Shown in pieces: positions 6,565-24,904 of a stretch of DNA of 32,792 bases. Origin of the DNA: Clostridia bacterium (GTDB lineage: Bacteria > Bacillota > Clostridia > Christensenellales > CAG-314); assembly GCA_017407305.1 (NCBI GenBank), contig JAFQWS010000040.1, positions 1 to 32,792 on the forward strand. Direction: 5' to 3'. Every line of letters starts with the position of its first letter. Position 1 is the first letter of the stretch. The notes beneath the pieces are model-generated. The model was not told the origin of the DNA. It did no database searches and saw nothing but the letters and a program-made list of their open reading frames with translations. A program made the translations under genes and the position numbers.

Positions 6565-6593
6565 TTCACCTTAATTTTTCTATGGTGTATAAT
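6565..6593 (+). promoter_or_regulatory. Sigma-70 promoter for the fibre-subunit operon
   Basis: TTCACC (6565-6570), a 17-nt spacer, then TATAAT (6588-6593). This predicts a ~150-nt A/T-rich 5' leader before the ATG at 6746. Confidence 0.5.
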
Positions 6594-6745
6594 ATTGTCG
6601 TAATTTATCTGGCAATTTTTTTATGCGAAAATTGTCATTATTTTTGTCCTTTTTTCGGGGCAGTAAAAAAACGGGTTTTTTGACAAAAAAAATCGGCTAA
6701 AAAACCTTGGAAAAAATCCATCAAATTTAGTGAGAAAACAGCGTT

Positions 6746-7711
6746 ATGTCCAGCAAAAAATTGTTCATTTCAATCATGACTTTGACCGTCACAATTTTTA
6801 CTTGTGTCGCCAGCGTTTTTGCCTGGTTTTTCAACGCACAAACGGGTATGTTTGGTGGTGTCAACATTGACGCTTCTGACGTTTTGAAAACGGTTGTTTC
6901 ACAAGACGGTTCTACTTGGCAAGAGTCAATGACTTTCGGTTCGGCAAGTTACAACTTTTCCTTGCTTTCAGGAACGGGTACAGTGGTGGGTGAACAACTC
7001 AATTTGGTACGTCCCGTGGTAGATGGTTTGACCGGCCAAGTAAAAGTGAACAGCTCAGGTCAATGGTTGTTGGATTCGGCTCCTCAAAAAGATGTTGACT
7101 TTATTGAATTTGACTTGTACGTCAAGACAAATTTGCAATCGGTTGTTTCCTTTGGCGAAGAAACTTACGTACGTCCCAAAGTTGCTGACGTTGCCAACAA
7201 TCAACGTAAAGCATCCAAGTTGGGTTACACACAAAGCCAATATGGAAGCTTTTCCATCGACTATCTTTCTGCGGCAACGCGCATGTCTATCAATAAGGTG
7301 GACGACAACGGTGAAACACTTTTGTGCTTGTGGGCTCCCAACGAAAACGTTCGCCTTCGTTGTGTAGATGTAGACAAATTCGTTTTATACACTGACGAAA
7401 GCCAATTTTCCAGCGACTCGACACAATACCTCTTTACGGAATTTCAATATTTGCAAAGTTACTCTTTTTACGACAACGCAATTTTGACGGAAAGAACTGT
7501 TGAAAGTCAAGATGATTGGTTCGTTACCGACATTGGTGACTTTTCCTACGAAATGCAATTGACTGATGCTCAAGACGGAGCATATGTATCCCACTTTGTG
7601 ATTCGCATTTGGATGGAAGGCTGTGACGCAGAAGCCCACTCGGCATTGGCAACGGGCGATGCAGAAATTGAAATCAACTTGCAAATCGCAACAACGTTGG
7701 TTACTGGCTAA
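6746..7711 (+). CDS. Secreted TasA/camelysin-like fibre subunit paralog 1 (SipW-type signal peptide)
   Basis: N-terminal TM segment then SVFA-WF (codons A-W-F at 6821-6829). Shared family blocks AATRMSI, LWAPN and IRIWMEGCDAEAH (W at 7610). No LPXTG motif and no C-terminal TM segment. Confidence 0.7.
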   Translation: MSSKKLFISIMTLTVTIFTCVASVFAWFFNAQTGMFGGVNIDASDVLKTVVSQDGSTWQESMTFGSASYNFSLLSGTGTVVGEQLNLVRPVVDGLTGQVKVNSSGQWLLDSAPQKDVDFIEFDLYVKTNLQSVVSFGEETYVRPKVADVANNQRKASKLGYTQSQYGSFSIDYLSAATRMSINKVDDNGETLLCLWAPNENVRLRCVDVDKFVLYTDESQFSSDSTQYLFTEFQYLQSYSFYDNAILTERTVESQDDWFVTDIGDFSYEMQLTDAQDGAYVSHFVIRIWMEGCDAEAHSALATGDAEIEINLQIATTLVTG

Positions 7712-7766
7712 CTAAGTTAATACTATATATAACATACACGCACGTACGCGTATTTAAAAGGTAAGC

Positions 7767-8720
7767 ATGAAAACAAACGCAAACAACAACGTAAATAAAA
7801 CAAGACGCATGGCACTGGTTGCCTTGTCTTTGGTTGTCGTTTTGTTGTTGTCGGTTGGAGTTACCCTTGCATGGTTTATCAACTATCAACTTACGCAACT
7901 TGGTGGCTCGACGGTTACCGTTACGGGAAGCAGAGTTTTGCAATTTTCCTTCTTTGACGAGGAAAATCCCGACCAATCGGTTTACGTCAGTCAAGCAACT
8001 CAAAGTTTTGAAGAATATGGATTGACACACGTTACAGGCAACGGCATAGATTTTTGGATTCCCTCGTTGGAACAACAAGATTCCAGTGCGTCGGTGGACG
8101 TGGGTGGCACTTGGACAAAAGCATTGGCTACCGACGGTACAGCACCAGGTGACTACATCAGTTTGTGCCTCAAGTTCTTTTCCGAAGATGTCATGGACGT
8201 TTATTTGAGCGCAGAAAGTTCCGTGCTTCCTGCAACGGAAAGCAACCCCAGCAACTACGGAGACTTTTCCAGAAACAACATTGCATCGGCCAGTCGCATT
8301 TCCTTTTTGAATACAACGTTTGATCAAGAGTGGAACAAGACGGAACAATTCAATTTTGTTTGGATTCCCAACGTCAACGGCCAATTGATTGAAACCAACG
8401 GAAGATTTTCCTTCAACTTAAACGGAACACCCGAAACGTCCTACTCTTACTACTATATCAATTCAAACGACGAAAAGGTGTCTGCAACGTTTAACGCAAC
8501 ACAATATATAACAGCCCCCACAGCACAAATCGGCGCAGAAGCACCTCAAGATGGAACGGGTTACGTCACAACTTTGCAAGAAGGGGAAAACGGACAATAC
8601 ACAGCCTACGTAACCATAAACATTTGGGTGGAAGGTTGCGACAGAGAATGTCGCAGAGCATTGGCAGGTGGACAATTTGACGTTTACTTGCAATTTATCG
8701 GTATTACGACACAACAATAA
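7767..8720 (+). CDS. Secreted TasA/camelysin-like fibre subunit paralog 2
   Basis: N-terminal TM segment then VTLA-WF. Family blocks SASRISF, VWIPN and INIWVEGCDRECR (W at 8625). Confidence 0.7.
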   Translation: MKTNANNNVNKTRRMALVALSLVVVLLLSVGVTLAWFINYQLTQLGGSTVTVTGSRVLQFSFFDEENPDQSVYVSQATQSFEEYGLTHVTGNGIDFWIPSLEQQDSSASVDVGGTWTKALATDGTAPGDYISLCLKFFSEDVMDVYLSAESSVLPATESNPSNYGDFSRNNIASASRISFLNTTFDQEWNKTEQFNFVWIPNVNGQLIETNGRFSFNLNGTPETSYSYYYINSNDEKVSATFNATQYITAPTAQIGAEAPQDGTGYVTTLQEGENGQYTAYVTINIWVEGCDRECRRALAGGQFDVYLQFIGITTQQ

Positions 8721-24112: not shown

Positions 24113-24138
24113 GTCCACCAAATTTTTACAAAACACTA

Positions 24139-24168
24139 TTTACAAACATTCACAAAATGGGTTATATT
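24139..24168 (+). promoter_or_regulatory. Possible internal promoter ahead of sipW copy 2
   Basis: TTTACA (24139-24144), an 18-nt spacer, then TATATT (24163-24168), about 35 nt upstream of the gaggag RBS and the ATG at 24203. Confidence 0.35.
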
Positions 24169-24202
24169 ATAAAATAACGTTTCAATTTTGTGAGGAGCAG
24201 GT

Positions 24203-24904
24203 ATGAAAGTATTGAAAAAAATAGGTTCCGTCCTTTTGGACGTCCTTATCGTTTTAGTTATGATTGTTGCACTCATCGTCATCGTCAACAGCGTCACAGC
24301 ACGCACCAACGACGGCGTTGGCAACGTATTCGGCGTGACGGTCTTTTCCGTTCAATCCGACTCAATGTCCGGCACCTTTGAAGAAGGCGACGTCATTTTG
24401 GGAAAAGCCTATGACAGAGATGATTACCAATTGAAAGTGGGCGACGTCATCACCTTTTGGTCTTATACAGACGATGGTCGTGTAATCAACACACACAGAA
24501 TCATTTCCATCGTTTCTGAAGGTGTTTATCAAACGCAAGGTGATGCAGAAGAATCTCCCGACGCACGCACCGTTTCCACCGTGCAAATCATTGCCTGCTA
24601 CGAATATGACCAACAAAACGACAAAGATGGCATCATCGTTTTGCCCGCTTTGGGACTTATCATTGACTTTTTGAAAGCCCCTGCAGGCTTTATCATCTTT
24701 ATTATTCTTCCCTTGCTTGCCTTGACTGCTTACGAAGCATACAACTTTGCAAAAAATCTCTCTGCATACAGAAAGGAAAAGAGAGAACTTCTTGCGCAAA
24801 AACAAGCAAAAGACCAATTTGACAGTCTTACCGAAGAACAAAAACAAGAGTTATTCAAAAAATATCTCGAACAAAAAAACAATCAAGAAAACAAGCAAGA
24901 TTAA
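24203..24904 (+). CDS. sipW: Signal peptidase I, archaeal/ER-type (S26B), SipW-like, copy 2 (divergent)
   Basis: N-terminal TM segment. Motifs SDSMSGTF (Ser box), GDVITF, NTHRIISI (His box) and TQGDAEESPD. A C-terminal TM segment is followed by a long Lys/Glu/Gln tail ending ..FKKYLEQKNNQ, similar to the KKYEKQLIEQYLKDKK tail of copy 1. Confidence 0.8.
   Translation: MKVLKKIGSVLLDVLIVLVMIVALIVIVNSVTARTNDGVGNVFGVTVFSVQSDSMSGTFEEGDVILGKAYDRDDYQLKVGDVITFWSYTDDGRVINTHRIISIVSEGVYQTQGDAEESPDARTVSTVQIIACYEYDQQNDKDGIIVLPALGLIIDFLKAPAGFIIFIILPLLALTAYEAYNFAKNLSAYRKEKRELLAQKQAKDQFDSLTEEQKQELFKKYLEQKNNQENKQD

Follow-up and report, generated by a model that had tools for sequence, protein, structure and literature searches.

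The stretch analysed here (the window; 32,792 nucleotides of contig JAFQWS010000040.1, forward strand, assembly GCA_017407305.1) comes from a Clostridia bacterium of the Christensenellales (CAG-314) and carries a long array of genes for exported subunits, two archaeal/endoplasmic reticulum (ER)-type signal peptidases and a pair of proteins resembling McrB and McrC. A first-pass annotation, made from the letters of the sequence, had described positions 6565 to 24904 as a TasA-like fibre locus with eight paralogous subunits. Its ten open reading frames (ORFs), i.e. A to H and both peptidase genes, were confirmed at the positions it gave, all on the + strand, as were the leader junction motifs and the archaeal type of the two peptidases (ORF check; TIGR02228 above cut-off). 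The functional unit, however, does not end at 24904 but reaches to 28006 at least, and includes a McrB-like GTPase and a McrC-like partner. We regard it as fairly probable that the locus is an operon of the CoCoPALM type, in which a Sec- and signal peptidase-dependent surface fibre of several subunits is combined with a membrane-anchored GTPase module derived from McrBC. The features are as follows (arrows, predicted cleavage sites; aa, amino acids; HMM, hidden Markov model; LRR, leucine-rich repeat; TM, transmembrane):

6565..6593, + strand: sigma-70-like promoter match 5' of gene A (TTCACC-17-TATAAT, 10/12 matches; weak)
6746..7711, + strand: A, minor family subunit, 321 aa, SVFA↓WF (family HMM, E=3e-14)
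7767..8720, + strand: B, minor family subunit, 317 aa, VTLA↓WF (family HMM, E=4e-16)
8729..9910, + strand: C, minor family subunit with a large central insert, 393 aa, VTFA↓WI-E (family HMM, E=1.5e-12)
9921..10538, + strand: D, small subunit of a separate family, 205 aa, YTFA↓WF (own profile, 26 orthologues)
10542..11150, + strand: SipW1, archaeal/ER-type signal peptidase I, 202 aa (TIGR02228, 79.9 bits)
11143..20559, + strand: E, BspA-type LRR protein, 3138 aa, leader TVFA↓WF (PF13306 LRR_5, E=4e-65)
20718..21725, + strand: F, membrane-anchored subunit class, 335 aa, LSMGNFSVEVD (family HMM on the C-terminus, 2e-4)
21850..22686, + strand: G, major subunit, annotated as IJF72_01885, 278 aa, ATYA↓WF (family HMM, 3e-70)
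22046..22551, + strand: allelic variable cassette within G (nucleotide alignment break against L001)
22766..22799, no strand: perfect 15-bp palindromic hairpin between G and H (hairpin scan)
22871..24112, + strand: H, second major-type subunit, 413 aa, STYA↓WF (family HMM, 1e-48)
24203..24904, + strand: SipW2, second archaeal/ER-type signal peptidase I, 233 aa (TIGR02228, 59.3 bits)
24925..26526, + strand: membrane-anchored McrB-like AAA+ GTPase, 533 aa (PDB McrB 6hz4, E=2e-6)
26528..28006, + strand: McrC-like partner (P492), 492 aa, with a DUF2357-type N-domain, a coiled-coil C-terminus and no detectable nuclease domain (phmmer homologues, 1e-20 to 1e-64)
28003..30429, + strand: P808, lineage-specific TM protein with basic internal repeats (4-bp overlap with the McrC-like gene)

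H most likely starts at 22871 rather than at 22754. Homologues of the family, the peptidases and the flanking genes were placed in 84 related loci (labelled L001 etc.), where they form a module of conserved, co-directional and tightly packed genes. The common order elsewhere is an F-like gene (~250 aa), a major subunit (~315 aa), SipW2, the 533-aa P-loop protein, P492, three more family members, a D-like gene and SipW1 (e.g. in L005, L008, L012, L023-25, L038, L044, L064 and L074). The window contains the parts of this common order in permuted arrangement, to which the 3138-aa LRR protein E and P808 are added.

Exported subunits and their peptidases

Paralogy can be demonstrated for six of the eight proposed proteins, A, B, C, F, G and H, as far as sequence comparison goes. 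They are joined by BLAST matches (A-B, 2.5e-9; G-H, 2.9e-13; A-G, 4.6e-6; A-H, ~5e-6; and, weaker, B-C and C-G at 1e-4 and F-H at 2e-4), and a family HMM matches all six, in C over its N- and C-terminal parts and in F at the C-terminus only. For D and E the similarity is confined to the leader and first strand. The HMM does not match D even at E<=10, and matches E at E=3.8 only. D belongs to a family of ~200-aa proteins with 26 matches in the related loci, usually encoded just 5' of a peptidase (SipW1). Its profile aligns with the main family over 53 columns (hhalign probability 93%) that comprise only leader, junction and first strand, and the first ~60 residues of E align weakly with the family leader and first strand (E=4e-4, probability 34%). 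D is thus a distinct, conserved small subunit, and E a giant protein that has only the leader in common with the family.

The internal conserved blocks noticed earlier are real and correspond to invariant or near-invariant positions in an alignment of 30 sequences: A29-W30-F31, F127-D128, R162, F165, W174-E175-P176-N177, W246, E248, G249 and D251. Across the 84 loci, A-W-F occurs in 90 of the 91 major-type ORFs and W-x-E-G-x-D in 182 of 194 family ORFs, a conservation far beyond chance. The segment W-x-E-G-x-D-x-[DE]-C (G residues 246-254, 22585-22611) consists of an acidic cluster and one conserved Cys. It may bind Ca2+, like sites in archaeal cannulae and in AbpX, or it may link subunits to each other.

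The family is large, unannotated and found in uncultured gut Firmicutes. With one sequence as query no more than 22 relatives were retrieved, whereas a profile, run against 1.84 billion representatives, retrieved 8,736 (at 50% identity) at E<=1e-3 and 4,348 at E<=1e-10. All named relatives are called 'hypothetical protein' and lack a precomputed Pfam domain. The scans revealed neither a Pfam or NCBIfam model nor a solved structure for the family: 30 diverse members gave no informative Pfam family (one marginal RibLong match, E=9e-4), sequence searches of the PDB that started from G or from the family profile gave no matches, and Pfam and NCBIfam scans of A-H yielded no informative family beyond LRR_5 on E and Flg_new on H, whose C-terminus is a Listeria-Bacteroides repeat (PF09479, 1.5e-6, and TIGR02543). 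The motif YxWxEGQDxD retrieved relatives from at least 397 species-level genomes and from 483 further metagenome stretches among the first 600 pattern matches, many of those listed belonging to human gut assemblies. The 80 loci kept are assemblies of uncultured organisms labelled Clostridia, Oscillospiraceae, Acutalibacteraceae, Faecousia, Bacilli, Erysipelotrichaceae and 'Tenericutes'/CAG, with some bins labelled Muribaculaceae.

When family ORFs are sorted by operon position, six distinct subunit classes can be recognised from their motifs:

Major class (n=91; window G and H): S/T-T-Y-A-W-F-T
Pre-major class (n=56; window F): no A-W-F; ...Y-x-G-G-[RKN]-F-T-V-x-L-D after a strongly basic n-region and a TM helix
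Post-McrC class, three types (n=28 in all; window candidates A, B and C): ...A-W-F; T-L-A-W-F; T-Y-T-W-[VI]-x-R-N-W-T-P
D-like class (n=26; window D): T-[FY]-[AS]-W-[MIF]

These classes lend support to the division of labour proposed at first, with major and minor subunits, an anchored variant and a large adhesin that bears the same leader. They also alter the interpretation of F, whose LSMGNF had been taken for a degenerate junction. The 56 orthologues of F lie directly 5' of the major subunits and carry the motif GG[RKN]FTV.LD in place of A-W-F, so that LSMGNF is not degenerate but the signature of a distinct, membrane-anchored class. F consists of a ~90-aa cytoplasmic N-domain, a TM helix, the segment LSMGNFSVEVD and the family C-terminal domain. 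Its N-terminal extension is in frame in L003 (59% identity), where Val replaces the internal Met; therefore F starts at 20718 (335 aa), not at 20655 as first annotated. This makes F a bitopic membrane protein rather than a secreted one.

E contains ten LRR_5 stretches (PF13306) and is a putative adhesin or terminal subunit. A search of E, including its C-terminus, for the W-x-E-G motif found none; the idea that E is a family protein into which the LRR was inserted was rejected since the C-terminus lacks the family motif. Other gut loci encode, between the minor subunits and D/SipW1, larger relatives of the W-[IV]-E type, which have 840-1150 aa and the leader T-[FY]-S-W-V-E-T-I-S. Large leader-bearing subunits are therefore typical, with E as the extreme case. 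In one lineage (L134, 13847-21031) a 2395-aa protein is encoded 3' of the McrC-like gene; it has an ordinary-looking signal peptide (positive N-terminus, hydrophobic stretch, small residues) and no A-W-F, which suggests that these operons repeatedly take up large surface proteins.

That SipW1 and SipW2 are dedicated enzymes of the SipW/archaeal type (S26B) is supported; both match TIGR02228 (archaeal-type signal peptidase I) above the cut-off of 51.85 bits. Against the Bacillus SipW equivalog model they reach ~91 bits (cut-off 190), and both are therefore SipW-like and not SipW orthologues. They are 28% identical to each other, have TM-like windows at both the N- and C-terminal ends, and carry the intact catalytic Ser/His boxes TGSMEP/ITHEI (SipW1) and SDSMSG/NTHRI (SipW2). 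In nine loci (L019, L033, L034, L037, L039, L045, L052, L065 and L081) SipW-type ORFs of 400-460 aa, double the usual length, lie ~1.9 kb 3' of the major subunit and represent a peptidase fused to an extra domain.

The junctions found are SVFAWF, VTLAWF, VTFAWI, YTFAWF, TVFAWF, ATYAWF and STYAWF, besides LSMGNF in F. In a profile alignment (hhalign) the junction TaTYA↓WFT falls on GGTWA↓AFND of TasA, in register with its mature start A28 (the TasA query was checked against PDB 8AUR, E=5e-151), which supports the TasA-like cleavage grammar proposed earlier; by analogy, it is reasonable to infer a cut after the Ala that would leave W-F at the mature N-terminus. Conservation peaks at T-Y-A-W-F and is poor in the h-region, which fits a removed leader. 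Sortase and type-IV-pilin readings were rejected: neither a C-terminal LPXTG-like motif nor the class III prepilin motif G↓F-x-x-x-E was found in any locus protein, Pfam scans matched no sortase family, as the first-pass annotation had said, and type-IV-pilus families gave no significant match in 20 window proteins (only Pilin_N on G, sub-threshold at E=0.12).

The likeness to TasA goes no further than this. PF12389 matched neither the 8 window proteins at E<=1 nor 30 diverse relatives at E<=0.01, the TIGR04088 signal-peptide class was not among NCBIfam matches of the window proteins at E<=1, and the family profile aligns with TasA at a probability of 0.7%, with the junction as the only aligned stretch. 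Homology of the subunits to TasA/camelysin, assumed at the outset, was rejected on these results and on Foldseek searches without a TasA match; the family is not detectably TasA-like and shares with TasA the T-x-A↓x-F grammar only. At the level of the locus, tapA-sipW-tasA of B. subtilis, calY/sipW of B. cereus and sipW-bsaA-bsaB-bsaC of C. perfringens likewise place a SipW-type enzyme beside substrates with T-x-A↓x-F, and in these loci as in the window N-terminal donor-strand polymerisation into extracellular Gram-positive fibres is expected. They possess, however, one to three subunits, while the window has at least six classes, two peptidases and a linked McrBC-like GTPase, and their subunits show no detectable sequence or fold homology to those of the window.

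An AlphaFold2 model of mature G, based on an alignment of 134 sequences, is an all-beta sandwich (pLDDT, i.e. predicted local distance difference test score, 87.3; predicted TM-score 0.86); a model of full-length G has a pLDDT of 75. Foldseek searches of the PDB with the two models gave 0 matches at E<=1e-3, and 8AUR, 5OF1 (TasA) and AbpA are not among the 50 matches listed for either. The viral database BFVD yielded no match at E<=1e-3, and a viral or phage-tail origin is therefore not supported. The highest Foldseek probabilities belong to donor-strand pilins (Saci_0406 thread 0.69, FimG 0.57, PapK 0.54, PapA 0.44, CS20 0.33), a resemblance that is no more than suggestive. Residues 1-20 of mature G are unpacked (pLDDT 42-49 vs 85-97 in the core). 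Among the 134 sequences, W1 and F2 are nevertheless 100% conserved and positions 8, 10, 13, 15 and 17 are 90-100% hydrophobic, following the alternation of a beta-strand. A conserved strand without a place in the monomer marks an N-terminal extension that is given in trans to another subunit, as known from TasA, threads and chaperone-usher pilins (PMC9674648, PMC9715654), and from the model we infer that the subunits may polymerise by donor-strand exchange.

The McrBC-like module

The claim that the locus lacks an assembly ATPase of known type has to be revised, as a conserved membrane-anchored GTPase of McrB type and a McrC-like partner follow directly 3'. The GTPase comprises an N-terminal segment of ~70 aa, a TM helix, a coiled coil and the GTPase domain, of which residues 219-415 correspond to the AAA+ domain of McrB (PDB 6hz4, see above; NF008457, 6e-7). 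All 38 full-length homologues possess an invariant GISGTGKTS (Walker A), D-E (Walker B) and N-N-D-D, and all 38 have a strong TM helix ~160 residues N-terminal of the P-loop. NNDD fits NxD with a following D as well as NxxD, and in a pairwise alignment with E. coli McrB it falls, ungapped, on N-T-A-D. In four of ten homologues the TM/coiled-coil region has sub-threshold matches to FtsL, FtsL_2 and DivIC. Between lineages whose subunits are ~25% identical, the GTPase is 47-59% identical. Among ten McrC-like homologues, eight score above cut-off for PF09823 (DUF2357, which is the N-domain of McrC), coiled-coil C-termini occur in long forms, and a PD-(D/E)xK nuclease family was not matched.

The family motif by itself led to 80 loci. 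A SipW-type gene is present in 72 of them, among these all 42 loci of at least 18 kb, and 118 of 119 SipW-type genes are co-directional with the family gene. A McrB-like gene is present in 39 of the 80, and wherever both McrB-like and McrC-like genes occur (34/34) they are adjacent and co-directional. We also retrieved 80 metagenome loci anchored on the GTPase, many from human-gut assemblies; each of the 42 that reach at least 15 kb has SipW, the McrC-like gene and family genes, with three or more family genes in 34 of them. That the McrBC-like pair might be a defence island that lies next to the fibre genes by chance was rejected, because the linkage is reciprocal (42/42), the genes lie on one strand and their ORFs overlap or nearly abut. 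The gene contents thus indicate that the GTPase and the McrC-like protein are obligatory partners in full systems. Loci without the GTPase are mostly arrays of the form SipW-x-SipW-x-major. A minimal layout of SipW, ~600 bp, SipW, ~620 bp and one major subunit, lacking McrBC-like genes within 10 kb, occurs in Bacilli and 'Tenericutes'-type loci (L041, L047, L049, L050, L055, L057-L059, L069, L071, L079, L080 and L083); the ~600-bp spacers probably hold further small subunits.

Although the first-pass annotation knew of no description of such a locus, the class has been named. Bell et al. 2024 (PMC11090510) introduced CoCoPALM, in about three sentences and with the analysis deferred, for 'pilus assembly' operons of McrBC and signal peptidases. 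According to that paper, NxxD is replaced by NxD, usually followed by D or E, an FtsB-like TM and coiled-coil domain is fused to the GTPase, and coiled coils are usually present on both the McrB and the McrC homologue (PMC11090510). The locus has the McrB-type GTPase, the McrC-like partner, the association with signal peptidases and the TM helix; shared with CoCoPALM are more precisely a McrB-type GTPase with TM helix and coiled coil, a DUF2357 McrC homologue, signal-peptidase genes and occurrence in Bacillota. In the CoCoPALM text there is nothing on the exported subunit family, on its structure and classes, on a layout with two peptidases, on an anchor class or on the allelic variation seen here. 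Our literature search, as far as it reached, found no follow-up paper on CoCoPALM, and those supplements of the CoCoNuT paper that were examined hold no text on it. The system class is thus named in the literature and hardly described otherwise.

Variation of G, expression signals and flanking genes

L001 is nearly identical to the window, with protein identities of 100% (McrB-like), 99.4% (McrC-like), 99.1% (SipW2), 98.0% (F), 97.8% (H) and 95.7% (E), in contrast to 45.6% for G. The nucleotide alignment breaks at 22046-22551 only, and outside this cassette the leader, the N-terminal strand and the C-terminal W-x-E-G-x-D strand of G are conserved. Further alleles of G are 79-84% and 46-48% identical. 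Major pilins and flagellins under immune or phage pressure show such cassette replacement, and the pattern suggests a similar pressure on G.

Within the locus, G alone has a perfect AGGAGG Shine-Dalgarno sequence. The G-H intergenic region (22687-22870) has a minimum free energy of -54.5 kcal/mol (z=-5.1 vs shuffled sequence), and its palindromic stem at 22766-22799 lacks a T-run on the + strand. This hairpin may stabilise or attenuate the transcript and thereby set how much major subunit is made relative to the minor ones, or it may serve as operator for a protein. A scan for promoters and terminators gave no enrichment of sites over shuffled sequence and is uninformative on operon structure. 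Upstream of A, ~890 bp (5859-6745) contain no ORF of at least 80 aa and are unusually long for a leader or regulatory region. An Rfam scan of the whole window at gathering thresholds gave 0 matches, hence no riboswitch was found in this region.

In P808, an N-terminal TM helix and an acidic stretch are accompanied by some four basic internal repeats, KRS[YFM]..L[VI]Q.... Its start overlaps the stop of the McrC-like gene by 4 bp, i.e. the two are translationally coupled. No family match was obtained in any library scanned, the only homologue is in L001, and it is uncertain whether P808 belongs to the fibre system. Further 3' (30508-32151) follow a 109-aa membrane-like ORF and a gene for a 385-aa protein that combines domains of a kind typical for large surface adhesins (MBG and YDG) with an N-terminal TM helix; the two ORFs are kept beside the locus in L001 and not in distant loci. 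Near the start of the window, 1316-1957 encodes a bacterial-type signal peptidase I (Peptidase_S26, E=4e-29), and the organism therefore owns a housekeeping LepB-type enzyme besides the two SipW-type enzymes. The gene pair at 2767-4916, for an SPFH/Band-7 protein with C-terminal zinc ribbons and a multi-zinc-ribbon protein, is unrelated to the fibre locus.

Assembly model, alternative readings and significance

That the product is a surface fibre is supported by the unstructured yet conserved, beta-patterned N-terminus, the weak fold matches to donor-strand pilins and the allelic replacement of the core of G. In the assembly we propose, the subunits would be exported by Sec and held in the membrane through their leaders, which SipW2 (beside F, G and H) and SipW1 (beside A-D) would cleave after the invariant Ala of T-[YF]-A↓W-F. 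The freed W-F extension with its alternating hydrophobic residues would then serve as donor strand for the beta-sandwich of a neighbouring subunit. G (and H) would form the shaft, and A, B, C and D, served by SipW1, a minor or tip complex. E might cap the distal end as an adhesin, in the manner of the cap proposed for Saci_0405; it would occupy one fibre end only, because it has the leader and strand but no acceptor domain. F, with its cytoplasmic domain, uncleaved TM helix and family ectodomain, is for these reasons the candidate that would anchor or terminate the fibre at the membrane. The N-termini would face the cell, a polarity that agrees with the membrane-anchored oligomer model for BsaA of C. 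perfringens. Beneath the membrane, a McrB-like hexamer with a McrC-like plug could sit on its FtsB-like TM/coiled-coil stalk and use GTP to gate, order, power or anchor assembly, possibly via the cytoplasmic domain of F.

The probable functional kin of the locus are the signal peptidase-dependent donor-strand fibres, but its subunit family is new and its GTPase derived from McrBC. Such fibres with tip and anchor subunits have been described (PMC12337348, PMC9715654, 10.1101/2024.11.04.621531, 10.64898/2026.01.04.697558); archaeal Tafi pili, for example, possess major, minor, tip and anchor subunits and a dedicated signal peptidase (PMC12337348), so that this layout too had a precedent unknown to the first-pass annotation. 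Tafi pili and Sulfolobus threads (PMC12337348, PMC11821415, PMC9715654) are donor-strand pili dependent on signal peptidase I in which, as here, the enzymes are conserved and the structural parts variable, and F parallels the Tafi anchor TafF, which combines a TM helix with a jelly-roll (PMC12337348). Unlike the window, they are archaeal and in part Tat-dependent, with no McrBC-like module reported, and the Saci_0406 thread, although the best-probability Foldseek match of the G model, is a non-significant one (E=0.016, TM-score 0.24-0.31). Chaperone-usher (type 1/P) and type V pili resemble the proposed fibre in their incomplete Ig-like or beta-sandwich subunits, strand exchange, tip adhesins and terminator or anchor subunits, and in Bacteroidia type V pili the site of strand exchange is laid bare by proteolytic cleavage. 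They belong, however, to the Gram-negative outer membrane, rely on chaperone and usher or on gingipain-cut lipoproteins, involve no nucleoside triphosphatase (NTPase) and show no homology.

Several observations weigh against a GTPase-assisted fibre. The evidence is wholly computational, and all hosts are uncultured metagenome-assembled genomes (MAGs). The Foldseek matches to pilins are non-significant (none at E<=1e-3; TM-scores 0.2-0.37). The McrC-like protein of the window itself falls below Pfam detection of DUF2357, and among PADLOC models the GTPase comes closest to one for a candidate in phage defence, PDC-M26A (7e-33). About half of the family-anchored loci, mostly of Bacilli type, lack McrBC-like genes within 10 kb. 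An adjacent GTPase is thus no precondition for the presence of the family, and such loci are either simpler versions or have the module encoded elsewhere in the genome. Finally, the donor-strand fibres known to us (TasA, chaperone-usher pili, threads) need no NTPase.

Loci without an adjacent GTPase would fit a divergent biofilm-matrix locus of the TasA family, as the first-pass annotation proposed. Its subunits would be very remote TasA/camelysin homologues that self-assemble outside the cell once cleaved by SipW, and the McrBC-like genes a neighbouring regulatory or unrelated module. The peptidases are of the same type, the T-x-A↓x-F grammar is in register, and the TasA superfamily is extremely divergent, including threads, Tafi and AbpX. 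We nonetheless hold this to be unlikely, given the lack of PF12389/TIGR04088 matches in the window proteins and 30 relatives, the hhalign probability of 0.7% outside the leader, the absence of TasA and AbpA from the Foldseek matches listed for the model of pLDDT 87, and the reciprocal linkage to the GTPase with co-directional and often overlapping ORFs. The PADLOC match fits instead a conflict or defence system, i.e. a CoCoNuT-like module whose exported proteins would act against phages as sensors on the surface, decoys or receptor-masking coats, instead of forming an adhesive pilus. CoCoPALM branches beside the CoCoNuTs, which are predicted defence systems, and the hypervariable G would fit phage-driven selection as well. 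Yet scans of the McrC-like protein and its neighbours detected no domain of a nuclease or other effector, six other scanned proteins, including G and both peptidases, lack a PADLOC match, and a set of several structural paralogs, adhesin-type LRR and Flg_new domains and a pair of dedicated peptidases is characteristic of an appendage; we rate a defence system as a little less likely still.

Slimmer again is the chance that the product is a non-filamentous envelope structure, such as a tethered surface layer or cell-cell junction placed by the FtsB-like GTPase, e.g. at the division septum. It would give a meaning to the sub-threshold FtsB/FtsL/DivIC-like matches in the TM/coiled-coil region, to the many hosts that are small-genome Bacilli or 'Tenericutes'-labelled MAGs and to the membrane-anchored F class, but the unpacked, conserved N-terminal strand and the combination of one abundant with many minor subunits fit a polymer with ends better. 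Least probable of all appears a machine akin to type IV pili, in which the leader is kept as a helix, the GTPase pulls subunits from the bilayer into a helical filament and the peptidases trim something else. The parts are analogous (major and minor subunits, large adhesin, dedicated peptidase, membrane NTPase) and G has the weak Pilin_N match, whereas the enzymes are of the S26B type I with active sites on the outer face, the prepilin motif is absent from the locus proteins, type-IV-pilus families did not match significantly in the Pfam/NCBIfam scans, and the sharp conservation of the junction over a poor h-region fits a cleaved leader. None of these readings covers the whole parts list as well as a fibre combined with a GTPase module. 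It is possible, and we put this forward tentatively, that the locus stands for a new class of Gram-positive pilus, built from an undescribed beta-sandwich family, released by signal peptidases, joined by N-terminal strand donation and assembled, ordered or anchored by a membrane-embedded GTPase motor that derives from McrBC and lacks a detectable nuclease domain.

How gut bacteria adhere to mucus, to particles of food, to host cells and to one another is determined by their surface fibres. In the majority of uncultured Clostridia and small-genome Bacilli, no structures of this kind are known to us. The cassette replacement in G makes this protein a candidate strain marker and antigen. The combination of parts also raises the question why a fibre that depends on Sec and signal peptidases should need a hexameric GTPase. 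Should the proposed assembly be true, a donor-strand fibre would for the first time be NTP-dependent, and a McrBC machine would for the first time have a task outside defence. Such a system would be common in the human gut and would widen the known range of a motor that has until now been linked to restriction and defence.

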